Origin: an uncultured Erysipelotrichaceae bacterium
GTDB taxonomy: Bacteria > Bacillota_I > Bacilli_A > RF39 > UBA660
Assembly (NCBI GenBank): GCA_902793375.1
Contig: CADBDE010000001.1
Span: 157,807-221,806 of the forward strand
Direction: 5' to 3'
Length of the DNA stretch: 64,000 bases
A model generated the notes under the pieces. It did not search any database and was not told the DNA's origin. It saw only the letters and a program-made list of their open reading frames with translations. The translations under genes and the position numbers were made by a program. Below are positions 7,720-35,151 of this stretch, in pieces; within the stretch, counting starts at the first letter, position 1; each line of letters opens with the position of its first letter.

Positions 7720-7723
7720 AATG

Positions 7724-15272: not shown

Positions 15273-15899
15273 ATGAAGAATAAAGAGATTGTATCTGGTT
15301 TAATTGGAGCGTCGTTCTTTGCGATTGGTTATTTAGGATTATCTATTGCAGCACTTCCTGCTCTTGCTGTTGGTACAGGAGCTTATGTTGCAAGTGAACT
15401 TCTTCTAAGTGGTAAAAAAGATATGGAAGAAGAATTTGGGACAATACCATTATCAAAAAGAATTGAAAAGGCAAGAAAAGACAATAAACATATAAGTGAT
15501 TTAATTAAGGAAATAGAAGATGAAGAATTACAAAAATATTTAAATGATATAAGTAATTCTTCTACTAAAATAATTAATACCATAGAAAAAAATAAGATTG
15601 ATAATAAAACATCTAATAAATTTATGGACTATTATCTTCCTGTTTGTGTTAATATATTAGATAGATATGATGACATAGAAAATCAAAAATTAACTTCAAA
15701 AGATAGTAAGAAGTTTATGGATAATAGTCACAAGATTATAAAAGAAACGTCTCTAGCATTCAAAAAAATATTAAATAGTTTGTATCAAAATGATATTGAG
15801 AATAATGAAGCAGAAATGAAAGTATATAATCAAATGTTAAAATCAGATGGTTATAATGCTAGTGAGATAGATGTGAAAGATGGTGATGAAGATGAATAA
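15273..15899 (+). CDS. XpaC-like (5-bromo-4-chloroindolyl-phosphate-hydrolysis-family) membrane protein
   Basis: ~208 aa with two N-terminal TM helices then a helical soluble region, the size and topology of B. subtilis XpaC; immediately upstream of a TelA-like gene as in the Bacillus xpaC-yaaN pair; AGGTGA RBS. Confidence 0.5.
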   Translation: MKNKEIVSGLIGASFFAIGYLGLSIAALPALAVGTGAYVASELLLSGKKDMEEEFGTIPLSKRIEKARKDNKHISDLIKEIEDEELQKYLNDISNSSTKIINTIEKNKIDNKTSNKFMDYYLPVCVNILDRYDDIENQKLTSKDSKKFMDNSHKIIKETSLAFKKILNSLYQNDIENNEAEMKVYNQMLKSDGYNASEIDVKDGDEDE

Positions 15900-17091: not shown

Positions 17092-17095
17092 AATT

Positions 17096-18277: not shown

Positions 18278-19867
18278 ATGAATAATATTGATTTAAGTAA
18301 AATGTATGATGATTTTTTTGGAGACAGTTTAGTAAAAAATACTTCTTTTGAAGAATACCTTGATTCTGAAAAAGATAATAAAGAAGAAGTTGAAAATATT
18401 GATATAGATAGTATTCTTTTAGATAATGATTCAAAAGAACTACTTAAAAAAATTATTAAATATACTAAAGATTATGAAGAAGGAACTGTAAGTAATTATA
18501 TTAACTTTAATATATTATTTAATTCTAATAATAAAGAAACAAAAGATTTAGTAATAGGAGCATTAAAAACAGTTTCTAGTAAATATTTATTAAATTATAA
18601 TGTTAAAGAAATATCTTTATATGATTATAATAAAAATACAGATCTTGAAAAAATGTTTGAAAATGGAATAGTAATAATTAAAGATTTAAAAGCATTTGGA
18701 CTTTTAGATGAACAAGATAAAACTATATTTATGTTTAATTTTAAAAAATATTTAATTGATAAAAGAATAGTTATATTATTTGATGAAAACCAAAATATAG
18801 ATAATTTTTTAACTTATGATAGAGAATTAAAATCTAAATATTTTAATTTTAAAATAAATGGAATTAATCCTGATATTCAAGATGTATATAATCAAGTACT
18901 AGATAAAGTTAAAATAGAAGAAGATAAAAAAGTTTCTTTATTAGATTATATTACTAGTACTTATTTAAAAACTGATGATGACTTTTTAACATATAGAGAT
19001 AAACTAATTAATTATATTTCTTTCAATAATGATATTCCAGTATTAAGTAAATCTAAAACAAATGAAGAAATATTTAAAGAATTAGATGAATTAGTAGGTT
19101 TAAAAGATGTTAAAAAGGCATTAAATGATTTAGTAAATTTAATTGGATTAAAATCAAAAACTGAAAAAGATTTAAAAATTAAAGATATAAATTTACATAT
19201 GTTATTTTTAGGAAATCCTGGAACAGGAAAAACAACTGTTGCTAGATTATTATCTGGAATATTATATAATTTAGGTTATATAAAAGAAGATAAACTATTA
19301 GAAGTTTCTTCAAAAGATTTAGTAGCAGAGTTTGTAGGACAAACAGCTCCTAAAACTAATGCAGTTGTAGAACGAGCAAAAGGTGGAATACTATTTATTG
19401 ATGAAGCATATGCTCTTGCAAGTGATGGAAGTAATTCTTATAATGATGAAGCAATAGCTACTTTAATAAAGTGTATGGAAGATTTTAGAGATGATTTAGT
19501 AGTTATATTTGCTGGTTACACAAAAGAGATGCAAGCGTTTTTAAATTCAAATTCAGGTATTGTATCAAGAATTGGATATACCTTAAATTTTGCTGATTAT
19601 ACAGTTGATGAATTAATACAAATATTTAATCAAATGATTAGTAAGGCAGGATTTAAAATAACAGATGGAGCTCTTAATAAAGTTAAAAAAATAATAGAAG
19701 ATAATATTGGAACTAAAAACTTTGGTAATGCAAGATTTGTTAGAAATATGTATGAAAAAACAGTAGTAAGACATGCTACTAATACAAAAGATAAGAAACA
19801 AAAAGAAAAATTAATAACTATTACTGAAGATGATATTAATATTGATAATTTAATTAGTGAAAAATAG
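18278..19867 (+). CDS. AAA+ ATPase of the CbxX/CfxQ/SpoVK family with a ~260 aa N-terminal extension
   Basis: C-terminal AAA domain with Walker A FLGNPGTGKTTVARL, Walker B ILFIDEAYAL and sensor/Arg-finger region VVIFAGYTKEM...SRI, typical of SpoVK/CbxX. Confidence 0.8.
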   Translation: MNNIDLSKMYDDFFGDSLVKNTSFEEYLDSEKDNKEEVENIDIDSILLDNDSKELLKKIIKYTKDYEEGTVSNYINFNILFNSNNKETKDLVIGALKTVSSKYLLNYNVKEISLYDYNKNTDLEKMFENGIVIIKDLKAFGLLDEQDKTIFMFNFKKYLIDKRIVILFDENQNIDNFLTYDRELKSKYFNFKINGINPDIQDVYNQVLDKVKIEEDKKVSLLDYITSTYLKTDDDFLTYRDKLINYISFNNDIPVLSKSKTNEEIFKELDELVGLKDVKKALNDLVNLIGLKSKTEKDLKIKDINLHMLFLGNPGTGKTTVARLLSGILYNLGYIKEDKLLEVSSKDLVAEFVGQTAPKTNAVVERAKGGILFIDEAYALASDGSNSYNDEAIATLIKCMEDFRDDLVVIFAGYTKEMQAFLNSNSGIVSRIGYTLNFADYTVDELIQIFNQMISKAGFKITDGALNKVKKIIEDNIGTKNFGNARFVRNMYEKTVVRHATNTKDKKQKEKLITITEDDINIDNLISEK

Positions 19868-19913
19868 ATTCTTATACTCAAAAAGAGTTTTTCTTGTAAT
19901 GATATTATTGTTT

Positions 19914-19944
19914 AGTCATAACGAAAAAAGTTATGACTTTTTCT
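19914..19944 (+). terminator. Rho-independent terminator (perfect 9-bp stem agtcataac/gttatgact, loop gaaaaaa, T-run)
   Basis: agtcataacgaaaaaagttatgactttttct located 47 nt after the AAA gene stop. Confidence 0.8.
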
Positions 19945-19948
19945 ATGC

Positions 19949-19977
19949 TTGACTATTTCAAATAATGATATTATAAT
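19949..19977 (+). promoter_or_regulatory. Sigma-A-type promoter (TTGACT, 17 nt spacer, TATAAT) upstream of the DUF4143 ATPase and gpmI
   Basis: ttgactatttcaaataatgatattataat. Confidence 0.55.
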
Positions 19978-20011
19978 TTAAAGTAAGAAAAATGGTGTTG
20001 GAGGACAGTTT

Positions 20012-21286
20012 ATGGAGCGTAAAATTGTAAAATTCCTAGAACATTGGCAAATTGATGAAAATAGAAAGCCATTAGTGATATATGGTGGAAAACAAGTTGG
20101 TAAGACTTATACTGTACTAAAATTTGGAGAAGAAAACTTTTCAAATGTAGTTTATGTTGATGCAAATGACAATAAAGAATTAATTGAGACTTTGAAAAAA
20201 CAAAACACTATTGATGGGATAATTAATTCCTTGTCTGATATTACTAAAGAAACAATAGAAAAAAATATAACTTTAGTAGTTATTGATAATGTTAATGATG
20301 TTGAAATTGTTGATACTATTAAAACTATTGGTAAATTTAAAAATGAATATCATGTAATTTTAATTACATCTTTAAGAGAAAATTTATCTAAGTTTAAAGG
20401 TATAGAACTTCAATTTAAATCTATGCTTCCAATGGATTTTGAAGAATACTTAACAGCACTTGGAAAAGAAGAGCTAATTGAGTTTATTAAAAGTTCATTT
20501 AAAAATAATTCAAAAATGCCTTTTCATAAAGTTGCAATGGAGTATTATAACTCGTATATGAAAACTGGAGGAATGCCTGAAGCAGTTGATTTATCTATAA
20601 GAGATGAAAATCAATTATTATTAAACTCTGTATTTGATAAAATTATTGATTCATATAAAAAAGAAATATCATTACAAGAAAACTTAATTGATATTTATAG
20701 AAGTAATGAAGTTTATAATAGTATTTCACAACAATTAACTAAATCTAATAAAAAGTTCCAATATGGACTTATTAAAGATGGTGGAAGAAGTAAAGAATAT
20801 GAAAATGCTTTAAACTTTTTACATAATAATGGCTTTATTTATAAATGTTATAAATTAACTGAAGTTGTATCCCCAATTAGTAATTACAAAGATAAAGATT
20901 GTTTTAAAGTGTATTTAAATGATACTGGACTTTTGTATAAAAATTTAAAAATAAATCATAATATTTTTGAAACTGATGAAAATATAAGACAAGTATTATA
21001 TGAAAATAGTGTTGCTGTTTCATTATTTAGTAGTGGATATAATTTATTTTATTACCAATCAGATGGTAAAGCCTTTATTGATTTTGTTATTCAAACAAGA
21101 ACAGGAAGAATTATTCCAATTGAACTTGTTCCATATAGTAAGACAAAATCAAAAGCATTATCAGTTTATATAAACAAATATAAACCTAGTGAAGCAATTA
21201 GAATAACTCAAGATAATTTTTGTATTAAAAAAGGAGTTAGATATATTCCAATTTATGCAACATTTTGTTTAACTGATTTAGTATAG
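20012..21286 (+). CDS. AAA-superfamily ATPase (AAA_14 + DUF4143 architecture)
   Basis: Walker A IYGGKQVGKTYTV and Walker B LVVIDNV; C-terminal DUF4143-like region; GGAGG RBS. Confidence 0.7.
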   Translation: MERKIVKFLEHWQIDENRKPLVIYGGKQVGKTYTVLKFGEENFSNVVYVDANDNKELIETLKKQNTIDGIINSLSDITKETIEKNITLVVIDNVNDVEIVDTIKTIGKFKNEYHVILITSLRENLSKFKGIELQFKSMLPMDFEEYLTALGKEELIEFIKSSFKNNSKMPFHKVAMEYYNSYMKTGGMPEAVDLSIRDENQLLLNSVFDKIIDSYKKEISLQENLIDIYRSNEVYNSISQQLTKSNKKFQYGLIKDGGRSKEYENALNFLHNNGFIYKCYKLTEVVSPISNYKDKDCFKVYLNDTGLLYKNLKINHNIFETDENIRQVLYENSVAVSLFSSGYNLFYYQSDGKAFIDFVIQTRTGRIIPIELVPYSKTKSKALSVYINKYKPSEAIRITQDNFCIKKGVRYIPIYATFCLTDLV

Positions 21287-21295: not shown

Positions 21296-22813
21296 ATGAA
21301 CAAATTAGTATTACTTATTTTAGATGGATGTGGAATAAGAGAAGAAAGTGATGGAAATGCTTTTAAAAATGCTAATAAACCAACATTTGATATGCTATTA
21401 AATAAATATCCACATTCAATATTACAAGCAAGTGGAAAAGCTGTTGGGCTTCCTGATGGTCAAATGGGAACTAGTGAAGTAGGGCATATGAACCTTGGAA
21501 GCGGAAGAGTAGCTTTACAACCACTTGAAGCAATAACTGAATCAATAGAGAATGGATCTTTATTTGAAAATGAAAAAATACTTGAAGTATTAAATCATGT
21601 AAAAATTAATAATTCAAATCTTCACTTTATGGGATTATTATCTGATGGTGGAGTCCATTCTCATATAAATCATTTACTTGGACTTATTGACATGTGTAAG
21701 AAAAATAATGTTACAAATGTTTATTTTGATTTATTTATGGATGGAAGAGATACATATGAAAAAAGTGCTCTTAAGTATTTAGATGTTTTAAATAATAAAA
21801 TAAAAGAAGTTGGATTTGGTAAAATCTCTACAATTTCAGGAAGATACTATGGAATGGATAGAGATGATAATTATGATAGATTAAAATTATCTTATGATGC
21901 TATCTGCTATGGAGAAGGACCAAAATATAATAGTTATAAAGAATTAATTGATGAAAACTACAATAATGGTAAATATGATGAATTCTTAATACCAGGACTT
22001 GTTGACAATTGTCCTTTAAATGATAATGATGGAGTAATTACATTTAACTTTAGAAAAGATAGGTTAAGAGAAATGTTTACTTTATTTACTAATCCAGATT
22101 TTTATAAAGATAAATGTGAAGAAAAAGGATTAAAGATTAAAGAATTTAGTAATTTAAAAGTATTAACTATGTTTCCTGTTGTGGAATCGGTATTGGCTCC
22201 ACATGCATTTAACGATTTAGATATGAAAAATATTATGGTTGATTATCTTCATGAAAATCATATTAGTCAATTAAGAATTGCTGAAACTGAAAAATATGCC
22301 CATGTTACATTCTTCTTTGATGGAGGACGTGAAGTAGAATATGATGATATGAAGAAGATTTTAATACCTTCTCCAAAAGTAGCTACTTATGATTTACAAC
22401 CTGAAATGAGTGTATATCCTGTAACTGATAAATTTTTAGAAGAAGTAGGAAACTATGATGTTACTATTATGAACTTTGCAAATGGAGATATGGTTGGACA
22501 CACAGGAAATTATGATGCTGCAAAAGAAGCAGTAGAAGATATGGATAAATGCATTGAAAAAGTATATAACAAGGTGGTTGTAGAACTTGGTGGAACTTTA
22601 ATCATTATTGCAGATCATGGTAATTGCGATATGATGTGGGATGAAAATCATAATCCAGTAACTAGTCATACAACAAATCCAGTTCCTTGTATAATTACTA
22701 AGGAGGGAATTGAATTAAAAGATGGAAAACTAGCTGATATAGCACCAACTATGCTTAGCATACTTGGACTTCCAGTACCTGATGAAATGAATGGAGAATG
22801 TTTAATAAAATAA
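21296..22813 (+). CDS. gpmI: 2,3-bisphosphoglycerate-independent phosphoglycerate mutase
   Basis: 505 aa with the iPGM Ser-phosphotransfer motif (DGCGIRE...TSEVGHMNLGSGR) and metal-binding motifs (ADHGN, GDMVGHTG); AGGAGG RBS 10 nt after the upstream gene. Confidence 0.95.
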   Translation: MNKLVLLILDGCGIREESDGNAFKNANKPTFDMLLNKYPHSILQASGKAVGLPDGQMGTSEVGHMNLGSGRVALQPLEAITESIENGSLFENEKILEVLNHVKINNSNLHFMGLLSDGGVHSHINHLLGLIDMCKKNNVTNVYFDLFMDGRDTYEKSALKYLDVLNNKIKEVGFGKISTISGRYYGMDRDDNYDRLKLSYDAICYGEGPKYNSYKELIDENYNNGKYDEFLIPGLVDNCPLNDNDGVITFNFRKDRLREMFTLFTNPDFYKDKCEEKGLKIKEFSNLKVLTMFPVVESVLAPHAFNDLDMKNIMVDYLHENHISQLRIAETEKYAHVTFFFDGGREVEYDDMKKILIPSPKVATYDLQPEMSVYPVTDKFLEEVGNYDVTIMNFANGDMVGHTGNYDAAKEAVEDMDKCIEKVYNKVVVELGGTLIIIADHGNCDMMWDENHNPVTSHTTNPVPCIITKEGIELKDGKLADIAPTMLSILGLPVPDEMNGECLIK

Positions 22814-22832: not shown

Positions 22833-23759
22833 ATGAATCTAAATCAAGAGAATATAAATGATTTCTTGAATAAATATATATCTTTTGTAGATGAAATAAG
22901 TGAGAATAATAATTATGACAATAATATAAGGCACTTATTATATGTAATTGTTCCCTCATTTGTTATTAAATATGGAATTAATAATGAATTAACAATTAAG
23001 GAATGTTTCAAAAATATAAAAGTTTATGTAAGAGAGCATCCAGAATATATTCAAGCAGCATTTAATAGAACTTTAAAGAAAAAAGATAATAACTATTATA
23101 CTGAAAAATATATTACAGTTAATCCATTTACAAATTCTTCTTTATCAGTTATTCTTGATAACTTTATTCATGAATTTAATCACGCCATTAATTCATATAA
23201 TAATGAGATTATTCTTAAAGATGATATGATCAAAATTAGAACAGGTCTTTCTACTTTAAATTACAATAGAGAAGATATGTCATTTATTGAAAAATCAGAA
23301 GAGATAGTATTAGAAGAACTATTAAATACTTCTCAAACTGAAGAAATCTTTAATATAATAAAATCATTTAATAAATTTAATATTGATAATCAAGAATTAT
23401 CAAATACCTTATATAATGTTAAACAAGAAAATAATGTAAAAGATTATGAGTCAGAAGCATATTATTATCAAAAAAAGATTTGTGAAAGATTAATTAACAA
23501 CAAAACATTTACTCCAACAATTAATAATCTTAGATTTAAGGGTTTTATTGAAGACATTCCAAATTTATTTGATAATGTTACAGGAGATAAAAATGATTAC
23601 AAAAAATTGAATGATTTACTTAATGATATGCATACAATGATATTAAAGTACTCAGAAAGTAAATTGTTTAAAGGTAAATATTTGTCTAAAATAAAAGAAC
23701 TATCAAATGGTGTTACTAGAATAATTGATGATTATGAAAAAAAGTGTATTTTTAAGTAG
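22833..23759 (+). CDS. hypothetical protein with a single HExxH motif (IHEFNHAIN); possible zinc-metallopeptidase-like
   Basis: 308 aa N/K-rich ORF with a GGGGTGA RBS; HEFNH at residues ~113-117; no other recognisable domain. Confidence 0.5.
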   Translation: MNLNQENINDFLNKYISFVDEISENNNYDNNIRHLLYVIVPSFVIKYGINNELTIKECFKNIKVYVREHPEYIQAAFNRTLKKKDNNYYTEKYITVNPFTNSSLSVILDNFIHEFNHAINSYNNEIILKDDMIKIRTGLSTLNYNREDMSFIEKSEEIVLEELLNTSQTEEIFNIIKSFNKFNIDNQELSNTLYNVKQENNVKDYESEAYYYQKKICERLINNKTFTPTINNLRFKGFIEDIPNLFDNVTGDKNDYKKLNDLLNDMHTMILKYSESKLFKGKYLSKIKELSNGVTRIIDDYEKKCIFK

Positions 23760-23873
23760 GGGTTAAACTCTACTTTTTATTATAAAAAAATAGTTTTAAA
23801 TGTTTTTTTGGTACCCTTATATGTGATATAATACTATTAAGAAATCAACTAAGAACGGAGTAGGAGTATATTT

Positions 23874-26800
23874 ATGAATAAAATGTATAAAAGAGTAATT
23901 GATAATTGTAAATATATAGAGGAATATTATGAGAAATTAGTAGATCTTACCAAGAATCATAATTTTGTTGGATCAACTAATGAATGGATAATAGATAATT
24001 TTTATTTAGTAGTTGAGCAAAGAAATGTTATTAAAAAATTTGTTAAGAATAAACATAATAGAAATATTTTAAATTCTAATGAAGACATGTATACTATTCT
24101 TTTAGATATTTATTTAAAACATAATTATAGTATGGATAAAAACATATTAATTAAGGAACTAAATAGTTATCAAACAAAAAATGATATATGCTTTTCTTAC
24201 AATGCGGTTTCTGTTATGCCTATATTTATTTCAATTCTATTAATTGAAGAATTATATGGTTTATGTAAAAAAAGAGAAGAAAAACTAGATGATTTAAAGA
24301 AAGTAAATGAAGTTATTTCAAAAATAGATGCAGCAAGACTTGAAAATCCAGATGTTAATTTAAGTGATTATGTTAAGATTGATAAATACATTATAGAGCA
24401 CCCTTATTATTTATATAATTTAAATGCTAATCTTAAAGAATTTGGAGAATCATCAAACGATATATTTGAAAAATTAAATAAATATTTAGAAGAAAATAAT
24501 GTTGATTTAAAAGAAGTAATAAATAATGAACATTTATCAAGTATTAGTGATAATCTTCTTGTTTCAAATTTATTTAATAATTTAAGAACGGTGACTAAAT
24601 TAAAATATGATGAGTTAGTTTCAAGAGTAAGTAAAGCAGAAAAAACTTTATTAACAGATTCTGTTTATAAAAGTATGACTCAAGAATCAAAAAACTTATA
24701 TCGTAGACAAATAGTTAAGAATGCTAAAAAGACAAATGAATTCAAATATGTTTACAATATAATGGAAAAAGTTAGAAATAGTGATAAAGAAATAGCTGAT
24801 TTCATATTTAAAAAGAGAAGTTATAATAAAACGTTTATTTCATATATTTCGTTAATAATAGTATTTACTTTTTTAATATCATTTGGTTTGTCATTTCTAG
24901 TTCTTGATTATTGGTATATTGCATTTATTCTTTTATTAATACCAATAAGTGAAGTAGTTATTCAGTTATTAAATAAAATATATATGAGGTTTAATAGACC
25001 TAAAACACTTCCAAAACTTGATTTTTCAAGGGGGATACCAGAAGAATATGCGACAATGATTGTAATTCCAACAATTGTTAAAAATACTAAAAAAATAGAT
25101 GATATGTTTTTGCAACTTGAAAAATATTACTTATCTAATAAATCTCCAAATCTTTATTTTACTTTATTAGGAGATTGTTCTGAATCAAATACAAGAGATT
25201 GTGATTTTGATGGAGAAATTGCTAAATATGGTGTTGAAAAAGCAAAAGAATTAAATACTAAATATAATAAAGAATTATTTTATTTTATGTATAGAAGAAG
25301 AGTTTTTCAACAAGGAGAAGGAAAGTTCTTAGGATATGAGAGAAAAAGAGGAGCTTTGATGCATTTTAATAAGCTACTTCTTGGTAAACTATCTGATAAA
25401 GATAAAGAAAAATATATTTATATAGAAACAGTTAGTAATTTAAAAGCTAAAATTAAATATGTTATTACTTTAGATTCAGATACAGAGATAGTACTTAATA
25501 CAGTTCAAAGCTTAGTCGGATTAATGGCCCATCCATCTAATAGGCCTGTTTTAAGCAAAAATAAAGATAAAGTAATTAGTGGATATGGTATTGTTCAACC
25601 TAGAGTAAGTGTTGATATTGAATCAACAAATAAATCTACTTATTCTCAGTTAGTTGCTGGAATTGGGGGATTTGATATTTATTCATCAATTATTCCAAAT
25701 TTCTATCAAGATGTATTTGGAGAAGGAAGTTTTGTTGGAAAAGGAATATATGATCTTGAAGTATTTGAAACAGTAATTGGAGATAAATTTCCAGAAAACT
25801 TAATTCTTTCTCATGATTTACTTGAAGGAAATTACCTAAGATGTGGATTTGCCTCAGATATTGAATTAATTGATGATTTTCCACCATCATTTTTGGTAGA
25901 TATGTCTAGACAACATAGATGGACTAGAGGAGATTTCCAAATAATTGGATGGTTAAAAAAGAAAATTAAAAGTAAGAGTGGATTTAAAATAAAAAATCCA
26001 TTAAATGGAATAGAAAAATTTAAAATATTTGATAATATAAGAAGAACATTTATTAGACCGGCATTATTATTATTAACTTTTTTGTCTTTTATTTGTGGAT
26101 GCCCTTTATTTGCTTTGCTGATATCTGTTTTTGTAATATTCTTACCACTTTTCTTCTATTTAAAAGAAATAGTAAGCATTCAAAAGAAAACTGTTGCTTC
26201 GTTTAAACATTATGATTCACTAGTTTTTGGAGCATCAGCTTTAATTGCTAGAGTATTTATTGATTTAATTACAATGCCTTATGTTGCTTATATGCATTTA
26301 AATGCAATGTTTAAATCATTTTATAGAATGCTTGTAAGTCACAAAAAACTATTGAATTGGATAACTGCAGAAGATGCACAAAAGACAATTGGTGGAAAAT
26401 TAATAACCTATATTAGAGCTTTTGAAGCTAATTATGTTACTGCAATTATTTTAGTAATACTAACTATATTTAATTATCATTATTTCTATATAGGAGTTAT
26501 TCTAATAATATGTTTCTTAATAGCACCATTTATTCTGTATAGAGTAAGTAAAGTACATGAAACAAAAGTTTCTTTAGATGAAGACAAGAATAAAGAATTA
26601 AAAGAAATTGCTAAAAGAACATGGAATTTCTTTGCAAATTTATTAACTGCTGAAAATAATTATTTAATACCAGATAATTATCAATTAAATAGAGAAAACA
26701 AAGTAGATCAAAAAACATCACCTACAGATATTGGTATGTCTATAACATCTGTAATATCTGCTTACGAACTAGGATTTATAAGAATAGATGAAACATTTGA

Positions 26801-29800
26801 GTACCTAGATAATATAATATCTTCTATTGAAAAATTGGAAAAATGGAATGGCTTTATTTATAACTGGTATAATATCAAGAATATGGAGAAGATGTTACCA
26901 TACGATATTTCATCTGTAGACAATGGTAATTTAGCAGCATGTTACATGGTTGCAAGAGAATTTTGCCATGAAAATGAAAATGAAAAATTAGAAGAAAGAA
27001 TTAAAAAATTATATGATGATATGGACTTTAAGAAACTATATACAGATAAAGATGTATTTAGTATTGCTTATGATTGTTCTGAAGATAGATTATCAACATA
27101 TAACTATAACAAATTTGCAAGTGAAAGTAGAATTCTAAGTTTCGTTGCAATTGCTAAAGGTGATGTTCCTGCAAAACACTGGTTATGTCTTGATAAATCA
27201 CTTACTAAATATCACAAATATAAAGGTCTTACTTCATGGTCAGGTACTTCATTTGAATACTTTATGCCTGAAATATTTATGAAGAGCTATTCAAATACTT
27301 TACTTGATGAAAGTTATTTCTTTTCTATATATTGTCAAAGAGAATATATGAAAGAAGTAGATAAAAATATGCCTTGGGGTATTTCTGAATCAGCATATAG
27401 TGAATTAGATGATGGATTAAATTATAAATATAAAGCGTTTGCAACTCCATATTTAAAAGTTCAAGAGGACAAAGTTCAAAGAGTTGTAATATCACCATAT
27501 GCCTCAATTCTTGCAATTACTAATAATCCTCAAGCAGTATACAACAATATTAATAAACTAAAAAAATTAGATATGTATGGGGATTGGGGATTCTATGAAT
27601 CATATGATTATGATGAAAAAACTATTGTTGAATCATATTTTTCACATCACCAAGGAATGATTTTAGCAAGTTTATGTAACTATTTAAAGGAAAATGCAAT
27701 AAGAGAATTATTCCATAATGATGTAAGAGTAAAATCAATTGAAATATTATTAAAAGAAAAAGTTCAATTTAATCCAATTATTGATCTTAAGATATATGGA
27801 TATAAAAGATATCATTATGAGAAAGAAATTGTTGAAAATGATATTCGTGCTTTTAACTTTATATCTGATGTTCCAGAAGTATCAGTTCTTTCCAACAACA
27901 ATTATATGTTGTTAATGAATGATCGTGGTAATGGATTTAGTAGATACAAACAAATACAACTTAATAGATATAGAAAAATAACTGAACAAAACTACGGAAT
28001 GTTTATGTATATAAAAGATATGAGTAATTCAAAATATTGGTCAAATACATATTCTCCTACTTATGTTAAACCAAACAAATATAATGTTGTATTTGCAAGT
28101 GATAGAATTACATTTGTTAGACAAGATAATAGAATAACTACAAAAACAGAAATAATTGTTACAAAAGAACATAATGCAGAAATAAGAAAAGTAACATTTA
28201 AAAACCATTCTAGTGAGGATAAATATTTAGAACTTACTACATATAATGAACCAATAATATCTGAAAATATTGATGATATTACACATAGAACATTTAGAAA
28301 TTTGTTTATTAGTAGTGAATATGATAAAGCAAATGAATCAATTATTATGTGTAGAAAAAATAATAATAAGAATTTATCTCAATATTATTTTAATAGATTA
28401 TTAATTGAAGATGATAACCATAAAATTACTTATGAAACAGAAAGATCAAATTTTATTGGAAGAGGAAGAAATAATGATAAACCTCTTGCTATGGAAGAAA
28501 AACTAACTAATACAATTGGTACAAATATTGACCCAATTATTGCTATTAGATCTAATATAATTGTTCCAGCTGGAAAAGAAAAAACAGTATTCTTTATTGC
28601 AGGGTATAGTAAATCACGTGAACAAATAACTGATATTATTGAATCATATAATACGTATTCAAAAATAGATACAGCATTTGAATACGCTACTTTAGCTAAT
28701 AATATAAATACAAAAATATTGGGTATTAATGGACCTGATATGAGAAATTACAATATGATGCTTAATTATTTGTATCAGACTAGTAGACATTTTATAAATG
28801 CTGAAAGAAAAGATATATTAACTAAGAATAGTTTGAATCAGACTAATTTATGGAAATATGGAATTACTGGAGATTATCCAATAATGCTTGTTGAAATATA
28901 TGAAAGTGAATCAATAAACTTAGTAAAAGAAGTACTTAAAGCATATGAATTTTATAAAACTAGATCTATATTTGTAGATGTTGTTGTGATTAATCGTGAA
29001 AGTGATGAATATAAGCCAATAGTAAAAAGGGAAATAGAAAAAGAGATGTATAGAATGAATACTTTGTATGACTTCTATGCAACCCCAGGAAGGCTTTATG
29101 TTTTAGATGGAAATGATGTAAGTTATCAAGAAGATGTTTTATTAAACATGGTAGCTAGACTTCGTTTTGATAGTAAAAAGTCTACTTCATTAACTGATAG
29201 TATTCACATTTTACAAAAAGAAAATAAAATGATTGTATATGATTCAATTAAGTATGCTGAATCTATAAAAGCAAAGGAAGATGAAAGCCTTAAATTCTAT
29301 AATGAATTTGGTGGATTTAATAAAAATGGTGATGAATACATAATTACTAATCCTGAGACTCCAACTCCATGGACTAATGTAATAGCAAATCCAAATTTTG
29401 GAACAATTGTTACAAATAATGAATGTGGATTTACATATGCATATAACTCTCAAATGTTTAAGATTACTTCTTGGACTAATGATATAGTACTTGATGATAT
29501 ATCTGAAGGAATTAATGTTAATGGCGAAAGAGTAAGTGCAAATAAATGTGTTCATGGATTTGGTTATTCTACATTTTCTCACGAGACTAAAGATTATACC
29601 TTTGATACAACTCATTTCGTAGCTCTAAATGATACAATTAAGTTCTATAAAATTAAGTTTACAAATAAGAGTAAAGAAAATAAAACATATAAACTTCATT
29701 TTTGGATTAATCCAACATTTGGACCTAATGAAGAAAAATCTAGTAGATATTTATTATCTGATTATTATGAATCGATGAACTCAGTATTAATAAGAAATGT

Positions 29801-31547
29801 TTATAATACTAATTTTGCTGGTGTTACTGCATTTTTAAGTTCTACAAATAGACTTTCTAATTGGTCAATAGATTTAATTTTATTTAAAGCTGTTGGAATA
29901 GATCTTGAAATGGCACCTGGAGAAGAGCAAGAATTCTCATTCATGTTAGGAACTGAAATTGGAAACGATAATGTTGCATCTTTAATAGAAAAATATAATT
30001 CTATTGAAAAAATAAATAAAGAGTTTAAAGCAGTTAAAGATTATTGGAAGAATAGATTAAGTGTTATTAAGGTTAAAACTCCAGATGAATCATTTAATAA
30101 TGTTATTAATGGATGGTATTTATATCAAACTTTTGCATCAAGAATAAATGCAAAAGCAGGATTCTATCAAGTTGGAGGAGCCTTTGGATATCGTGATCAA
30201 TTACAAGATTCAATGAATGTTTGTATGGTAGAACCAGAAATAACAAGAAGACAAATTATTGAAAATGCTAAACATCAATTTATGGAAGGTGATGTACTTC
30301 ACTGGTGGCATGAATTTTTAAGACTTGGATTAAGAAGTAGATACAAAGATGATTTCTTATGGCTTGTGTTTGCAACAATTAGATATGTTACAGTAACTGG
30401 TGATTATAAAATTCTTGATGAAAATATTGAATTTGTAGATGGTGAAAAACTTGGAGAGAAAGATGCTGAAAGAGGAATTAATTATGCCTATACAAATACT
30501 AAAAAAACTTTGTATGAACATTGTTTATTATCAATTAATAAGTCATTTAGTGAATTAGGTGATAATGGTCTTCCTTTAATGGGTGGAGGAGACTGGAACG
30601 ATGGAATGAACAAGATTGGTATTGAAGGAAAAGGTACTAGTGTATGGCTTGGTTTCTTCTTATATACGATCGTTAAGTCATTCTTACCGCTAGCTAAAAA
30701 GTATAAGAATTTGGATACTAAAGAATATGATGAAAAATTAGCAAAACTAAAGAAATCTTTAAATTCAAATGCTTGGGATGAGGATTATTATTTAAGAGCA
30801 TTCTTTGATAATGGAGATGTTTTAGGTTCTCATATAAATGATGAATGTAAGATTGACTTAATAAGTCAAAGCTTTGCAATTATATCTGAAGTAGTTGAAA
30901 AAGATAGGATTGATAAAGTAATTAATTCAGTAGAAAAATACTTGGTAGATTCTGATTTAAAGATTATTAAGTTACTTGATCCACCATTTGCTAAAACTAA
31001 AAATAATCCAGGATATATTATGGATTATCCAAAAGGAATAAGAGAAAATGGAGGACAATATACTCATGCTGTGTCATGGTATATAATGGCTTTAATTAAG
31101 TTGGGTTACAAAGATAGAGCATATGAGTATTTCCAAATGATTAATCCAATTAATAGAACTTCTACTAAGAAAGATGTTAAAAAGTATAAAGTTGAGCCAT
31201 ATGTTATAGCAGCAGATATTTATAGTAATCCTGATTATCCTGCAAGAGGAGGATGGACTTGGTATACTGGTAGTGCAGGATGGTTCTATTATGTAGCATT
31301 AACAGAAATACTTGGTATGAAAAAAGAAGGAAATACTTTGAGATTTAAGCCGTCTGTTCCAAAAACATGGAAATCTTTTGAAATTGAATACAGATATATA
31401 GATACTTTATATAAAATAAAATATAATTATAATAGTAAGAGTGAAGGTATTATTGTTGATGGAGATAAGATAAGTAAAAATTATATTACTCTTAAGAATG
31501 ATAAGAGACTTCATGCTGTAATTATAAGTGGAGGTAACAATGATTAA
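23874..31547 (+). CDS. Cyclic beta-1,2-glucan synthase (Cgs/NdvB)-like giant protein: cytoplasmic N-terminus, TM helices flanking a GT84/GT2-like glycosyltransferase domain, then a ~1650 aa GH94-like glycoside-phosphorylase region
   Basis: 2557 aa continuous ORF; GT motifs ITLDSDTEI (DxD) and QHRWTRGD (Q-x-x-RW); multiple TM helices at residues ~320-360 and ~740-900; GH94 hallmark GGGDWNDGMN near the C-terminal (alpha/alpha)6 region. Confidence 0.75.
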   Translation: MNKMYKRVIDNCKYIEEYYEKLVDLTKNHNFVGSTNEWIIDNFYLVVEQRNVIKKFVKNKHNRNILNSNEDMYTILLDIYLKHNYSMDKNILIKELNSYQTKNDICFSYNAVSVMPIFISILLIEELYGLCKKREEKLDDLKKVNEVISKIDAARLENPDVNLSDYVKIDKYIIEHPYYLYNLNANLKEFGESSNDIFEKLNKYLEENNVDLKEVINNEHLSSISDNLLVSNLFNNLRTVTKLKYDELVSRVSKAEKTLLTDSVYKSMTQESKNLYRRQIVKNAKKTNEFKYVYNIMEKVRNSDKEIADFIFKKRSYNKTFISYISLIIVFTFLISFGLSFLVLDYWYIAFILLLIPISEVVIQLLNKIYMRFNRPKTLPKLDFSRGIPEEYATMIVIPTIVKNTKKIDDMFLQLEKYYLSNKSPNLYFTLLGDCSESNTRDCDFDGEIAKYGVEKAKELNTKYNKELFYFMYRRRVFQQGEGKFLGYERKRGALMHFNKLLLGKLSDKDKEKYIYIETVSNLKAKIKYVITLDSDTEIVLNTVQSLVGLMAHPSNRPVLSKNKDKVISGYGIVQPRVSVDIESTNKSTYSQLVAGIGGFDIYSSIIPNFYQDVFGEGSFVGKGIYDLEVFETVIGDKFPENLILSHDLLEGNYLRCGFASDIELIDDFPPSFLVDMSRQHRWTRGDFQIIGWLKKKIKSKSGFKIKNPLNGIEKFKIFDNIRRTFIRPALLLLTFLSFICGCPLFALLISVFVIFLPLFFYLKEIVSIQKKTVASFKHYDSLVFGASALIARVFIDLITMPYVAYMHLNAMFKSFYRMLVSHKKLLNWITAEDAQKTIGGKLITYIRAFEANYVTAIILVILTIFNYHYFYIGVILIICFLIAPFILYRVSKVHETKVSLDEDKNKELKEIAKRTWNFFANLLTAENNYLIPDNYQLNRENKVDQKTSPTDIGMSITSVISAYELGFIRIDETFEYLDNIISSIEKLEKWNGFIYNWYNIKNMEKMLPYDISSVDNGNLAACYMVAREFCHENENEKLEERIKKLYDDMDFKKLYTDKDVFSIAYDCSEDRLSTYNYNKFASESRILSFVAIAKGDVPAKHWLCLDKSLTKYHKYKGLTSWSGTSFEYFMPEIFMKSYSNTLLDESYFFSIYCQREYMKEVDKNMPWGISESAYSELDDGLNYKYKAFATPYLKVQEDKVQRVVISPYASILAITNNPQAVYNNINKLKKLDMYGDWGFYESYDYDEKTIVESYFSHHQGMILASLCNYLKENAIRELFHNDVRVKSIEILLKEKVQFNPIIDLKIYGYKRYHYEKEIVENDIRAFNFISDVPEVSVLSNNNYMLLMNDRGNGFSRYKQIQLNRYRKITEQNYGMFMYIKDMSNSKYWSNTYSPTYVKPNKYNVVFASDRITFVRQDNRITTKTEIIVTKEHNAEIRKVTFKNHSSEDKYLELTTYNEPIISENIDDITHRTFRNLFISSEYDKANESIIMCRKNNNKNLSQYYFNRLLIEDDNHKITYETERSNFIGRGRNNDKPLAMEEKLTNTIGTNIDPIIAIRSNIIVPAGKEKTVFFIAGYSKSREQITDIIESYNTYSKIDTAFEYATLANNINTKILGINGPDMRNYNMMLNYLYQTSRHFINAERKDILTKNSLNQTNLWKYGITGDYPIMLVEIYESESINLVKEVLKAYEFYKTRSIFVDVVVINRESDEYKPIVKREIEKEMYRMNTLYDFYATPGRLYVLDGNDVSYQEDVLLNMVARLRFDSKKSTSLTDSIHILQKENKMIVYDSIKYAESIKAKEDESLKFYNEFGGFNKNGDEYIITNPETPTPWTNVIANPNFGTIVTNNECGFTYAYNSQMFKITSWTNDIVLDDISEGINVNGERVSANKCVHGFGYSTFSHETKDYTFDTTHFVALNDTIKFYKIKFTNKSKENKTYKLHFWINPTFGPNEEKSSRYLLSDYYESMNSVLIRNVYNTNFAGVTAFLSSTNRLSNWSIDLILFKAVGIDLEMAPGEEQEFSFMLGTEIGNDNVASLIEKYNSIEKINKEFKAVKDYWKNRLSVIKVKTPDESFNNVINGWYLYQTFASRINAKAGFYQVGGAFGYRDQLQDSMNVCMVEPEITRRQIIENAKHQFMEGDVLHWWHEFLRLGLRSRYKDDFLWLVFATIRYVTVTGDYKILDENIEFVDGEKLGEKDAERGINYAYTNTKKTLYEHCLLSINKSFSELGDNGLPLMGGGDWNDGMNKIGIEGKGTSVWLGFFLYTIVKSFLPLAKKYKNLDTKEYDEKLAKLKKSLNSNAWDEDYYLRAFFDNGDVLGSHINDECKIDLISQSFAIISEVVEKDRIDKVINSVEKYLVDSDLKIIKLLDPPFAKTKNNPGYIMDYPKGIRENGGQYTHAVSWYIMALIKLGYKDRAYEYFQMINPINRTSTKKDVKKYKVEPYVIAADIYSNPDYPARGGWTWYTGSAGWFYYVALTEILGMKKEGNTLRFKPSVPKTWKSFEIEYRYIDTLYKIKYNYNSKSEGIIVDGDKISKNYITLKNDKRLHAVIISGGNND

Positions 31548-32745
31548 TTTTGATTTTCATAAATATGCTAGTAAGTATATAAAAAAAGAAGATAAAGTAG
31601 AATATCTAGAAAAAGCAAGAGAAATAAAGGCTAGATTTATTGATGGGGACTTAAAATATTGGAATAAATTAGATACTTTTATATCAAGTCAAGAACTTAA
31701 GAAAATAGTTAATATGACAGATTATATTAGATCTAATTGTGATGTATTTATAGTAATAGGAATTGGTGGATCTTACATGGGAAGTAAAGCTGTTATTGAG
31801 GCTTTATCTCCTATGTATGATAAAAAAGGTCCAGAAATAATATTCTTAGGAACAAATCTATGTAGCGAAGAATATTATGAAACACTTGAATATATTAAAG
31901 AAAAAGATGTAATTGTTGATGTAATATCCAAGTCAGGTACTACTCTTGAGCCATCAATTGCTTTTTCACTTATTTTAGATTTAATGAGTAAAAAATATAG
32001 TGAAGAAGAATTAAAGAATAGAGTAATAATTACTACTGATCCAGAAAAAGGTGATTTAAGAAATCTTGCTAATTTAAAAGGTTTTGTTACATTTACTGTA
32101 CCAGAGGCAGTTGGAGGAAGATTTTCTTGTTTAACTCCTGTTGGATTATTACCAATAGCAGTAGCTGGAATTGATATTTTAAAACTTATAAATGGTGCTA
32201 GAACTTCTTATGAAAGAGTAGATAGAGCAATAGAATATGCAGTAATTAGAGACATAATGTATAAAAAAGGAAAAATTATTGAATCATTTACTGTCTATAA
32301 TCCAAAATTAAATTATTTCTGTGAGTGGTTAAAGCAATTGTTTGCAGAAACACAAGGAAAAGATAAAAGAGGAATACTTCCTATATCTTGTATTAACACA
32401 AGAGATTTACATTCTCTAGGACAATTTTTACAAGAAGGCCATGATATTATATTTGAAACAGTAATAGGAATAGATAAAGATAAAATGGTAACACTAGATA
32501 AATATGATATGGAGTTAAATAGTATTAATAAAATAGCACTTGATAAGGTTGGATTAGCTCATTATAATGGAGAAACTCCAAGTAATTTAATAACTATAGA
32601 AGAAAAAAATGAAGAAACTATTGGAGAATTAATTCATTTCTTCATATTATCAGCAATTATTGGAGCGTTAATAATGGAAGTTAATCCATTTGATCAACCT
32701 GGAGTACAAGAATATAAAAAATTGATAAGTGAGGAGTTAGAATAA
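31540..32745 (+). CDS. pgi: Glucose-6-phosphate isomerase (short ~400 aa form)
   Basis: PGI signatures IVIGIGGSYMGSKAV and GGRFSCLTPVGLLP; GGAGGT RBS inside the end of the upstream gene; ATG overlaps the Cgs-like gene by 8 nt. Confidence 0.85.
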   Translation: MINFDFHKYASKYIKKEDKVEYLEKAREIKARFIDGDLKYWNKLDTFISSQELKKIVNMTDYIRSNCDVFIVIGIGGSYMGSKAVIEALSPMYDKKGPEIIFLGTNLCSEEYYETLEYIKEKDVIVDVISKSGTTLEPSIAFSLILDLMSKKYSEEELKNRVIITTDPEKGDLRNLANLKGFVTFTVPEAVGGRFSCLTPVGLLPIAVAGIDILKLINGARTSYERVDRAIEYAVIRDIMYKKGKIIESFTVYNPKLNYFCEWLKQLFAETQGKDKRGILPISCINTRDLHSLGQFLQEGHDIIFETVIGIDKDKMVTLDKYDMELNSINKIALDKVGLAHYNGETPSNLITIEEKNEETIGELIHFFILSAIIGALIMEVNPFDQPGVQEYKKLISEELE

Positions 32746-32746: not shown

Positions 32747-33547
32747 ATGGAAGAAGCATATATATCTTTTATAGTAATAGCAATTATATTTTTGCTTTGT
32801 ATGTTACCTGGATGTATAATCCAAATTAACGAATATGAAAGAGGGGTACTTTTCTCTCGAGGAAAATTTAAAAAAGTATTAAAACCAGGGTGGCATTTAA
32901 GGCTTCCTATACTTCAAAGTTTTAAGAAAGTTGATATAAGAACTAAAGCCGATGATGTACCTGCTCAAGAAGCAATTACTAAAGATAATGTATCTGTTAA
33001 AATAAATGCAGTTTTATACTATAAAATATTTGATGCATCCAAAGCAATTCTTGAAGTTGAAAATTATTATTATGCAACAGGACAACTTGCACAAACAACA
33101 ATGAGAAATGCAGTTGGTAGTGTAACACTTGATGAATTATTGGGAGAAAGAGAAAAAATATCTGGTGAAATATGTAAAGTAATTGATGAATTAACTGATC
33201 CATGGGGAATTAAAGTTGAAAACGTTGAATTAAAAGATATTTCACTTCCAGAAGAGATGCAAAGAGTAATTGCAAAAGTTGCTGAAGCAGAGCGTGAAAA
33301 AGCAGCTGTTATAACTAAGGCAGCTGGTGAAGTTGAAGCTTCAAAAAATTTGGCAGAAGCTGCGCAAAACATGGCATCAGTTCCTGGTGCACTTCATTTA
33401 AGAACGTTATCAACAATTAATGATGTTTCAAGTGACCAATCAAATACTATTATATTTGCAATACCTTTAGAAATATTAAGAGCATTTGATGGAGCTAATG
33501 TAAAAGATATTGTTAGTAAAATAAGCAATAAAAAAGATGATAATTAA
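32747..33547 (+). CDS. SPFH/band-7 (stomatin-like) membrane protein
   Basis: N-terminal TM anchor followed by an SPFH domain (RTKADDVPAQEAITKDNVSVKINAVLYYKI...VELKDISLPEEMQRVIAKVAEAEREK); starts 1 nt after the pgi stop. Confidence 0.85.
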   Translation: MEEAYISFIVIAIIFLLCMLPGCIIQINEYERGVLFSRGKFKKVLKPGWHLRLPILQSFKKVDIRTKADDVPAQEAITKDNVSVKINAVLYYKIFDASKAILEVENYYYATGQLAQTTMRNAVGSVTLDELLGEREKISGEICKVIDELTDPWGIKVENVELKDISLPEEMQRVIAKVAEAEREKAAVITKAAGEVEASKNLAEAAQNMASVPGALHLRTLSTINDVSSDQSNTIIFAIPLEILRAFDGANVKDIVSKISNKKDDN

Positions 33548-33566: not shown

Positions 33567-34943
33567 AATAGTGTTGGTGAACAATAAATTTGATAAATGA
33601 ATTGTTTATAGAGAGTGATTTTTAATCACTCTTTTATAATGCCTTTAATTAAAAATATTCTGGCAATAAAATGATCATATTTTTTATAGCCAAAAGCGAT
33701 TCGTTTTAGACATTTAATTAAATTATTTGTTCCTTCAATAATTCCATTATTTATATCATATTTAAATGAATTTTCTATATATTTTAAATTATCATTATAT
33801 AACTTTAAAGCTTGTTTCATTTTTGTATTAGAATGTAGTACTATTGATTTAAATTTATTAAAATCTTTATTCTTTAAAGAATTAATTAATCCTTGATAAC
33901 ATTCATAAGTAGCTTTCAATTCTAAATTTGTATTAATTAAGTATTGTACAATTTCTTTTTGAGATATTTCCTTTTTAAAATGCTTAGAGTATCTTTTTTT
34001 ATTAGACAAGTCATTTTCATTTTTAACAATTAATTTCCAATAATCTTTTAACTTATTATAATTAGGATTAGACTTATAACAAAGTTTAACTCTAGTAGTA
34101 TTTAAAGCATTATATGCTTGAATAACTATGTGGAATCTATCTATTGATATTTCAGCATTTTTAATATATGTTTAACTTTGTTTCTTTCATCTTTAGAATA
34201 TCTTCTAAAATATTTATTTAAATCAATAGATTTTCTGGAGTCCTGAATATCGAAAATATTTCCATTATCATTATCAGTAATAATAAAAGCCATTTTTCCT
34301 TTAGTATCACGAGTTGCTTTAAATTCATCCCAGTTCATAGATTTTGGAAGAGTGGAATGCCTTAAAACAGTATGAGAAGAGATTTCAGTTAGTTTTCTAT
34401 CTATTTTAGAAACAGAGACATCTAATCTTTTAGCAATATCTTTTTCACTTTGTTTTGACATCAATTCAAGATTTATTTGAAGTTCAGTATTATTAGAAAT
34501 GTTTTTATTTTTATTAATTAAACTAGTTTCAGCAATAAAAGTTTTATTACAATTTCTACAAAAAAATCTCTGTTTGTGAAGAATTAATAAAGAAAAACAA
34601 TTTGAAATTTTAGGAATTTTTATTTTACAATTTTATCTGAATCCCCATTTAATAATGTCATTGTGAGATTCATTAATACAACCACAACAAGGACAAAAAT
34701 CAGGAATATAAGATAAAAATCCTTCAATAATCTTATATTTCTTATTTTTTATAACTTTTTCCTCAATATTAGGTGAGATAAAAATATTTTTATCTTCAAT
34801 ATTTAGCAAATTTAATATATAATTATTCATAGACATAGGTTTATTCCTTTCAATGTTTTCTTGTCAATTACATTGTATCAAACCTATGTCTTTTTAATAA
34901 ATAAAAATAGTGTAGTGAATTTACACTCACCAACACTATTTAT
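33567..34943 (-). mobile_element. ISL3-family insertion sequence (~1.38 kb) with imperfect terminal inverted repeats and an inactivated transposase
   Basis: Terminal IRs AAATAGTGTTGGTGA...TAAATT at 33567-33595, matched in reverse complement at 34915-34943; the internal ORFs encode the ISL3 zinc-finger N-terminus, middle segment and C-terminus (…IEGTNNLIKCLKRIAFGYKKYDHF…). Confidence 0.75.
33626..34836 (-). pseudogene. ISL3 transposase pseudogene: an in-frame TAA at 34630-34632 plus a frameshift near 34010-34140 split it into three ORF fragments
   Basis: Fragments 34633-34836 and 34141-34464 are in the same frame, separated by one stop, and read-through translation restores the ISL3 sequence; fragment 33626-34009 is in a different frame. 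Confidence 0.75.
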
Positions 34944-35028: not shown

Positions 35029-35151
35029 TTTAAACGTGTGGCTGCTTAGATGTGTGAGGTTGCTGATACGCCAGGCGAAGTTGCAAGGCAAAAATCGGGT
35101 TATTTACACGGAGCAAGTCTATACGACGATATAGGCGAAGGGAGGATTTAT
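35029..35151 (+). promoter_or_regulatory. Structured, locally GC-rich 5' leader of the S10 operon (candidate ribosomal-protein autoregulatory leader)
   Basis: ~120 nt at ~50% GC within 27% GC surroundings; potential long-range pairing CGTGT(35033)/ACACG(35106) and local hairpins (cgc-cag-gcg; ctata-cgacga-tatag) just 5' of the GGAGG RBS. Confidence 0.4.

Follow-up and report, generated by a model that had tools for sequence, protein, structure and literature searches.

A predicted compact cyclic β-1,2-glucan synthase and its conserved pairing with pgi in uncultured gut Bacilli

Introduction

Why would a gut bacterium with very AT-rich DNA carry a 7.7 kb gene for a glucan synthase-like membrane protein whose last codons run into the start of pgi, the gene for glucose-6-phosphate isomerase (PGI)? 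The question is raised by a 64,000-nucleotide stretch of contig CADBDE010000001.1 (positions 157,807 to 221,806 of the forward strand; about 25% GC) from an uncultured Erysipelotrichaceae bacterium, which we call the window. Cyclic β-1,2-glucans have been known chiefly from Proteobacteria (Brucella, Agrobacterium, Rhizobium), in which they act as periplasmic osmoprotectants and in interactions with the host, and pgi would ordinarily be regarded as a housekeeping gene of glycolysis. A preliminary description of this DNA read the large gene as a cyclic glucan synthase of the Cgs/NdvB type and regarded a Firmicute copy tied to central sugar-phosphate metabolism as unusual.

The explanation that we favor, and hold to be probable, is that the gene, here called cgs, encodes a compact Cgs that would make cyclic β-1,2-glucan, that it forms one transcription unit with pgi, and that the pairing serves the supply of hexose phosphates. 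Homology to characterized synthases, conservation of the catalytic residues, and adjacency to pgi with overlapping junctions are observed directly.

Sequences Compared

The protein database holds 935 relatives of the predicted protein at E ≤ 1e-10; the open reading frame (ORF) is not a product of chance. The 120 best of these are all full-length (2489–2572 residues) and 52–92% identical. In a scan of one genome per species, more than 587 stretches encode full-length Cgs relatives, and the best 80 of these loci were examined. Counts of the pairing with pgi refer to the 69 of the 80 loci that are informative, in which cgs is complete and is followed by 1.2 kb or more of sequence. Residue conservation was read from a MAFFT alignment of the window's Cgs with 78 full-length homologues (n = 79; 46–78% identity), and residues were mapped from printed alignments to the Cgs of Agrobacterium tumefaciens (AtCgs; 8RF9/8RF0) and to the cyclization domain of Thermoanaerobacter italicus (TiCGSCy; crystal structure 8WY1).

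The best 80 loci belong to metagenome-assembled genomes (MAGs) named as uncultured Bacilli, Tenericutes, Mollicutes or Mycoplasmatota, a few of which bear names that submitters evidently chose. Their sources are rumen, goat, deer, rabbit, mouse, chicken and human gut, the GC content of the loci is 23–35%, and one relative has a circular chromosome of 1.31 Mb. The earlier suggestion that a Firmicute copy would be unusual is not sustained, given the more than 587 stretches with full-length relatives, the characterized Thermoanaerobacter domain (8WY1, PMC10834661), and homologues in Clostridia and other groups that are already labeled "protein ndvB", "cyclic beta-1,2-glucan synthetase" or "glucoamylase family protein". 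The cyclase-domain family, searched with the TiCGS fragment, comprises 3939 proteins at E ≤ 1e-20, an output consisting mostly of short gene fragments. The kind of enzyme was, in short, known already; what goes beyond it is the wide and strictly conserved presence of the enzyme in a clade of uncultured gut Bacilli. A literature search found no paper linking β-1,2-glucan with RF39, Tenericutes or Mollicutes MAGs, which does not prove absence elsewhere.

Domain Organization of Cgs

The gene and the predicted parts of its product are as follows.

23874–31547, plus strand: cgs, a single ORF of 2557 residues, aligned over its full length to AtCgs
23874–24833, plus strand: N-terminal cytoplasmic domain (NTD), residues 1 to ~320; residues 8–287 align with AtCgs chain positions 43–323 (37.8 bits)
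24846–24971, plus strand: predicted transmembrane (TM) helices 1–2, residues 325–366 (hydropathy peaks at 325–343 and 348–366)
25011–26048, plus strand: GT84 glycosyltransferase domain, residues ~380–725 (D434, D534, D536, Y603, D648 and R682/W683 aligned to AtCgs)
26088–26537, plus strand: predicted TM helices 3–6, residues 739–888 (hydropathy peaks at 739–757, 783–801, 847–873 and 870–888)
26571–27773, plus strand: cyclization (GH189) domain, residues ~900–1300 (match to 8WY1, E 5.2e-103; E1084, E1128, E1172 and H1258/H1259)
27870–31388, plus strand: GH94 region, residues ~1333–2505, with supersandwich, Rossmann-like insert and catalytic barrel (PF06165, PF17167; D2108, D2243)

The comparison with 8RF9/8RF0 reaches 1378 bits, in four collinear stretches that span residues 8–2505 of the window's protein. 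The single 7.7 kb ORF of the preliminary description is thus found at 23874–31547, and the motifs that it quoted lie at residues 534 (DSDTEI), 680 (QHRWTRGD) and 2237 (GGGDWNDGMN). Its placement of TM segments on both sides of the glycosyltransferase region agrees with the hydrophobic residues 325–366 and 739–888; hydropathy yields two plus four candidate TM helices, at the places expected from AtCgs around the GT84 domain, and AtCgs has six. Within the family alignment, conservation is lowest in the NTD.

Pfam models match in the order PF10091 "Glycoamylase" (residues 1080–1282, E 1.8e-21), the GH94 supersandwich PF06165 (E 2.2e-82) and the GH94 catalytic domain PF17167 (residues 2057–2481, E 1.5e-108), and no NCBIfam model matches Cgs. 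Domain models, which the preliminary description had proposed as a check, therefore bear out the GH94 and cyclase parts and leave the GT84 part uncovered; the GT84 assignment rests on the alignment to AtCgs. The C-terminal region is GH94-like, as had been claimed, and a simple phosphorylase fusion without a glycosyltransferase (GT) domain is ruled out by the GT84 alignment and the end-to-end match to AtCgs.

AtCgs, also known as ChvB, together with Brucella Cgs and Sinorhizobium NdvB, has the same order of parts: NTD, two TM helices, GT84, four TM helices, cyclase, and GH94 with supersandwich and Rossmann-like insert. Judged by the full-length AtCgs alignment, the 8WY1 match and the GH94 Pfam matches, the large protein is a true member of the Cgs/NdvB/ChvB group, with NTD, TM, GT84, TM, cyclase and GH94 in one polypeptide. 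Stand-alone GH94 enzymes (cellobiose and chitobiose phosphorylases, 1,2-β-oligoglucan phosphorylase) match its C-terminal ~520 residues at E 1e-62 to 1e-76 and share the GDWND motif; however, they are soluble enzymes of ~800 residues without GT, TM or cyclase parts, whereas in the window's Cgs GH94 forms the last third of a membrane protein. For the middle domain the best match is TiCGSCy, a GH189 domain that is likewise from a Firmicute and shares the catalytic Glu/His set; TiCGS has been characterized as an isolated domain only (PMC10834661). The endo-β-1,2-glucanases of GH144 and GH162, such as Chitinophaga pinensis SGL (5GZH), belong to the (α/α)6 superfamily of the cyclase domain, are similar in size, share the acid residue and give a weak but significant match (E 2e-4). 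They are hydrolases lacking the GH189 nucleophile Glu, in contrast to the window's cyclase domain, which has the GH189 catalytic set.

Conservation of the Catalytic Residues

The roles of the residues in AtCgs (PMC10901819) and in the TiCGS cyclization domain (PMC10834661) are available from published work, and the alignments give the following correspondences.

GT84: AtCgs D527, D624/D626, D739 and R773; Cgs D434, D534/D536, D648 and R682-W683
Primer site: AtCgs Y694; Cgs Y603, within GGFDIYSS
GH189: TiCGS E1356 (acid/base), E1442 (nucleophile), E1400 and H1536/H1537; Cgs E1084, E1172, E1128 and H1258/H1259 (alignment to 8WY1)
Cyclase: AtCgs D1104 and E1300; Cgs D1016 and E1084
GH94: AtCgs D2393 and D2528 (catalytic acid); Cgs D2108 and D2243

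The AtCgs catalytic set D527, D624, D626, D739, R773, Y694, D1104, E1300, D2393 and D2528 is common to the window's Cgs, and indeed all the residues that have been probed experimentally in AtCgs and in the T. italicus domain are present. The GT84 part carries the UDP-binding Asp, the DxD, the catalytic base Asp and the Q(H)RW motif (QHRW at residues 680–683). In the family alignment the mapped catalytic columns and Y603 are invariant in 79 of 79 sequences, with the exception of D536, which is Gly in three. By its position on the counterpart of the IF1-homology loop, Y603 is the predicted tyrosine primer site.

A Compact Cyclization Domain

At 2557 residues the window's Cgs is ~260 residues shorter than AtCgs, which has about 2820. 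Its NTD accounts for ~75 of these, and AtCgs chain positions 1102–1233 have no counterpart in it; neither do positions 149–300 of 8WY1, a segment of ~150 residues in TiCGS. Both absent segments are bridged by just five residues (1033–1037), and no large insert occurs in any of the 79 aligned family members. What is the missing piece? The distance from D1104 to E1300 in AtCgs is 196 residues and that from D1016 to E1084 in the window's Cgs is 68, close to the 69 residues between E142 and E211 in a minimal GH144 enzyme. Since the spacing matches that of the minimal fold, and from the position of the gap, we take the absent segment to be the ~130-residue four-helix dimerization motif of the cyclase domain.

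In AtCgs this motif protrudes outward and mediates back-to-back dimers, outside the active site. It is accessory rather than catalytic, and its absence removes none of the catalytic features by which the enzyme is recognized. Given that the dimerization insert is absent, the compact Cgs probably works as a monomer or through a different interface. The loss of the insert appears to be new; neither it nor the pairing with pgi changes the kind of enzyme.

The Junction of cgs and pgi

31530–31534, plus strand: Shine-Dalgarno sequence GGAGG for pgi, within the last cgs codons (read from sequence)
31540–32745, plus strand: pgi, 401 residues, overlapping cgs at 31540–31547

The junction reads ...AGT GGA GGT AAC AAT GAT TAA, with the cgs stop codon at 31545–31547 and an overlap of 8 nt (ATGATTAA). 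The overlap and the ribosome-binding site inside the large gene had been described before, and both are there (GGAGG 31530–31534, ATG 31540). A start at GTG 31528, given for pgi in the ORF listing, is displaced by the homology-supported ATG 31540, at which the homologues also begin.

The arrangement is a property of the clade. In 63 of the 69 informative loci cgs is followed, in the same orientation, by a gene for a PGI homologue, which in 53 is the immediately adjacent ORF; next in frequency among the neighbors come a HAD phosphatase (16 loci), D-Ala-D-Ala ligase (14) and PAP2 (14). The 63 junctions fall into these classes:

Overlapping (−1, −4, −8, −11, −14, −17, −20): 29 of 63 loci
Gap of 0–20 nt: 16 of 63 loci
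Gap of 21–120 nt: 9 of 63 loci
Other ORFs in between: 9 of 63 loci

A Shine-Dalgarno-like motif stands ahead of pgi in 55 of the 63 loci, and GGAGG is strictly kept in all 11 of the closest relatives that were aligned. Between cgs and pgi the window showed nothing that resembles a terminator. Relatives whose Cgs is more nearly identical to that of the window also tend to have a more nearly identical PGI (Spearman 0.52, p 1e-5), a correlation in keeping with inheritance of the two as a pair. The pair is found clade-wide, all other neighbors vary, and the association appears to be new. A junction so tight and so recurrent fits an operon, possibly with translational coupling. The best promoter-like site inside cgs, at 31399–31433 with a TATAAT ~110 nt upstream of pgi, was considered and set aside, as it is not conserved in close relatives. 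Nor did the loci with inserted genes reveal a consistent third partner, the genes between cgs and pgi being miscellaneous (unknown proteins, an M14 peptidase, a sigma factor).

What follows cgs is the gene for an ordinary isomerase. The protein matches PF00342, and it matches NF010697 at E 8.8e-121 with 403.6 bits, below the 443-bit equivalog cutoff; against the PGI of B. stearothermophilus (1B0Z) the E-value is 1.2e-89, with GGRFS, AETQGK, DLHSLGQ and GVQEYKK in place, motifs whose residues we take to include the catalytic ones. The "short-form pgi" of the preliminary description is indeed short, its 401 residues being ~45 below the usual length; by sequence it is no special form but a Bacillus-type enzyme with shorter loops and intact catalytic motifs.

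Outside the clade the picture differs. At five cgs loci from other lineages, picked by means of a TiCGS fragment taken from the PDB alignment, pgi is absent near cgs in all five. In Caloramator sp. mosi_1 (CP117677) genes for a PGM_PMM_I phosphoglucomutase and a sugar-1-phosphate nucleotidyltransferase (NTP_transferase) lie directly upstream of cgs, and behind another non-clade homologue a gene for an NAD-dependent sugar epimerase follows. Different supply genes thus stand beside cgs in different lineages, and linkage of cgs to a step in UDP-glucose supply therefore recurs. The Caloramator cgs (4038–14972 of locus L085) is split into many ORFs, probably through assembly frameshifts or pseudogenization.

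Signals and Genes Upstream of cgs

22833–23759, plus strand: gene for an HExNH protein of 308 residues, a neighbor outside the cgs-pgi unit
23754–23775, plus strand: terminator-like hairpin and T-run immediately behind the HExxH gene, which they set apart from cgs
23824–23832, plus strand: candidate extended −10 (TGATATAAT) upstream of cgs, from sequence only
23862–23866, plus strand: Shine-Dalgarno sequence AGGAG for cgs, 7 nt before the ATG

At 25% GC a sigma-70 promoter scan is uninformative, with 100 sites found against 115 expected. Rfam detected no riboswitch or leader near cgs, the sole RNA element of the window being the S10 leader at 35039–35138, and a tRNA search of the window found none.

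The HExxH-motif protein, said earlier to precede the giant gene, exists as an ORF rich in Asn and Lys (24.7% N+K, vs 17.4% in Cgs) with HEFNH at residues 113–117. It does not belong to the unit, however: because the hairpin follows its stop codon and, in relatives, a DUF308 membrane-protein gene on the opposite strand intervenes between it and cgs, we place it outside, and its occurrence is limited to 13 of the 80 loci, all in the closest sub-clade. Its family is small (235 matches; 312 representatives at E ≤ 1e-3 among 1.84 billion proteins), real and uncharacterized. Full-length members have ~300 residues, and 76 of 83 such representatives carry the motif; H113, E114, H117 and E125 are conserved or invariant, and D109 is conserved. 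No Pfam match was obtained even at E ≤ 10, and no NCBIfam match; a profile search against the PDB gave nothing, as did Pfam on ten distant family members. In the AlphaFold (AF2) model (pLDDT 93.5, pTM 0.91) the motif lies on a helix, residues 104–120, after a β-sheet. Foldseek of this model against the PDB and BFVD returned nothing significant, with sub-threshold IrrE-N/SprT-like matches. The protein may be a zincin-like hydrolase, or at least have such a fold, of an undescribed family.

Further upstream the gene order is whiA, clpP, gap, pgk, a PF03706 gene with a GT4 gene, tpiA, spo0A, a VWA/TelA group, two ATPase genes, gpmI, the HExxH gene and then cgs-pgi. Four of these genes are glycolytic:

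6673–7719: gap
7868–9058: pgk
11308–12027: tpiA
21296–22813: gpmI

This is the classical Firmicute gap-pgk-tpi-gpmI cluster, split by insertions; beyond cgs, the glycolytic series goes on with pgi.

Discussion

How would such an enzyme work, and why beside pgi? In the mechanism that we propose, the GT84 domain would glucosylate its own Tyr603 and extend a β-1,2 chain from UDP-glucose, the GH94 domain would trim the chain by phosphorolysis and release glucose-1-phosphate (G1P), and the GH189 domain would close the ring by transglycosylation. The scheme of autoglucosylation, phosphorolytic trimming and ring closure has been established for AtCgs and TiCGS (PMC10901819, PMC10834661). The genes cgs and pgi would form one transcription unit, and ribosomes would start on pgi from the Shine-Dalgarno sequence that lies within the last codons of cgs. 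As to the pairing, its likeliest rationale would be control of hexose-phosphate supply at the branch point of glucose-6-phosphate (G6P): fructose-6-phosphate would be interconverted with G6P, G6P would pass by way of G1P and UDP-glucose into glucan, and the G1P set free by trimming would re-enter the same pool. Since PGI acts where glycolysis and the way to G1P and UDP-glucose part, at G6P, its co-expression with Cgs would tie glucan synthesis to hexose-phosphate supply. We infer the product, the co-transcription, the translational coupling and this rationale from the features described above.

Several points weigh against this explanation. The organisms are uncultured, and product, activity and transcription are here inferred from sequence. 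The GT84 part of Cgs has no match in either Pfam or NCBIfam. No exporter of the Cgt/ChvA type, pgm or galU is visible within the 64-kb window. The pgi gene is missing within about 3–6 kb downstream of cgs in six of the 69 loci (L018, L021, L035, L048, L049 and L063), and in nine loci unrelated genes are inserted between cgs and pgi. The Caloramator parallel comes from a single genome. Finally, the gap, pgk, tpiA and gpmI genes are dispersed through the neighborhood, and the adjacency of cgs and pgi could be an inherited order without specific function.

This last point leads to the rival that deserves most thought, namely that Cgs is genuine, that pgi is the sole glycolytic isomerase and has signals of its own, and that the two merely stayed adjacent in small, slowly rearranging genomes with no link to the glucan. 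The best argument for it is that the glycolytic genes upstream lie scattered with unrelated genes between them; it would also accommodate the six loci that have lost the adjacency and the nine that tolerate inserted genes, and in AT-rich DNA there are many promoter-like sites in the 3′ end of cgs, such as 31399–31433, from which pgi could be served. However, pgi is kept in 63 loci vs at most 16 for any other neighbor of cgs. The 29 overlapping junctions leave no room for a terminator, and, at the window's own junction, the site at 31399–31433 is not conserved in close relatives, whereas the Shine-Dalgarno sequence is. We regard inherited order as unlikely.

The remaining rivals concern the product and the direction of the pathway. 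The altered geometry of the enzyme could lead to something other than a cyclic β-1,2-glucan with a degree of polymerization of 17–25, be it a linear glucan, a ring of another size or a protein-linked glucan, since ~130 residues of the cyclase domain and ~75 of the NTD are absent by comparison with AtCgs, where the NTD and the cyclization domain form the primer chamber (PMC10901819). Yet the missing segment protrudes outward in AtCgs, has its role in dimerization and lies outside the active site; the cyclase catalytic pair and the supporting Glu and His-His are intact; and the D1016–E1084 spacing (68) matches the minimal GH144 fold (69). Such a product seems to us very unlikely. It is still less likely that the system is mainly catabolic or a carbon buffer, in which GH94 would phosphorolyze self-made or imported β-1,2-glucan to G1P, PGI would feed this into glycolysis, and the glucan would be a storage polymer. 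The catalytic Asp of GH94 is invariant and so is the whole GH94 domain; G1P, the product of phosphorolysis, is two steps from the substrate of PGI; and GH94 phosphorylase reactions are generally reversible (review PMC11842490). But the GT84 and cyclase residues are equally invariant, so that synthesis and ring closure are under selection; neither a glucan uptake system nor a β-1,2-glucanase was found adjoining cgs in the window and the examined loci; and in AtCgs the glycoside phosphorylase activity only tunes ring size. Moreover, a closed ring offers an exo-phosphorylase such as GH94 no non-reducing end, as textbook enzymology has it.

We return, then, to a compact Cgs whose gene is paired with pgi, and ask what it would mean. 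A fully equipped synthase is kept under strong purifying selection in many species of uncultured gut Bacilli with small genomes, and at this genome size (1.3 Mb in the circular relative) a 7.7 kb gene is a substantial investment. The host differs from that of AtCgs in being a low-GC Gram-positive-type gut bacterium without a periplasm, and the window's cgs differs in having no adjacent ChvA/Cgt exporter gene and in being followed by pgi; AtCgs has no export channel of its own. With no periplasm and no linked exporter in view in the 64 kb, the destination of the glucan becomes a question, as does the reason why the synthase should be tied to the first committed isomerase of glycolysis. It is tempting to go further and to suppose that these small-genome bacteria constitutively make cyclic β-1,2-glucan with a compact, non-dimerizing Cgs and that cgs-pgi is a flux valve at the G6P node, a picture that we consider decidedly unlikely in its entirety. 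If it were true, the gut would hold an overlooked source of β-1,2-glucan, which could be an osmoprotectant or a modulator of host immunity for a thin-walled bacterium and a natural substrate for the β-1,2-glucan degraders of other gut bacteria. The compact enzyme may, in addition, be a simpler scaffold for structural work and for the biotechnological production of cyclic glucans.

Other Features of the Window

Several of the genes that split the glycolytic cluster can be named. Between pgk and tpiA are wedged the genes for a PF03706 "LPG_synthase_TM" membrane protein (9058–10077) and a GT4 glycosyltransferase (10074–11348), and the ORF boundaries of this stretch overlap (9058/9058, 10074/10077, 11308/11348); it is the second case in the window of genes for glycosyl transfer joined to glycolytic genes. 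Between tpiA/spo0A and gpmI, positions 13574–18250 encode a protein with VWA and solute-binding domains, a PF10112 protein, a 403-residue ORF without a family and TelA (toxic anion resistance). They are followed at 18278–21286, immediately upstream of gpmI, by an AAA+ ATPase (529 residues) and a DUF4143/AAA_14 ATPase (424 residues). Several relatives have a homologue of the DUF4143 ATPase upstream of cgs as well, though not always in the same place, a sign that the gene may be mobile or often moved.

Downstream of pgi, after 1 nt, comes one further gene on the same strand:

32747–33547, plus strand: SPFH/band-7 gene (PF01145, E 1.5e-40), downstream in 11 loci, all of them close relatives

Between it and the S10 operon, a fragment of an ISL3-family transposase (127 residues, the C-terminal part only) and a second short ORF, at 33626–34464 on the minus strand, are probably the remains of a decayed insertion sequence. 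The S10-Clostridia leader RF03136 (35039–35138; 35.5 bits, slightly over the gathering score) extends across position 35050, where the S10 ORF begins in the ORF listing; since, in addition, S10 models match only from residue 36 on, the real start of rpsJ lies downstream. At 55063–60773 there are seven consecutive plus-strand ORFs of 129–254 residues without a Pfam match, interrupted only by 56523–57395.

As to the kind of cell, the window has spo0A at 12146–12913 and, at 60873–62883, a sortase gene beside that of a pilin-like protein with SpaA and thioester domains; sortases have been reported as lacking in RFN20 and ML615J-28 (PMC10868615). With spo0A, the sortase and the names of the MAGs considered together, the lineage may be RF39-like. 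In relatives, genes for D-Ala-D-Ala ligase and Mur ligase lie near cgs. Taken together, spo0A, the sortase and pilin genes and the wall-ligase genes point to a lineage with a cell wall and sporulating ancestors, although related MAGs bear the small-genome labels "Tenericutes/Mollicutes".

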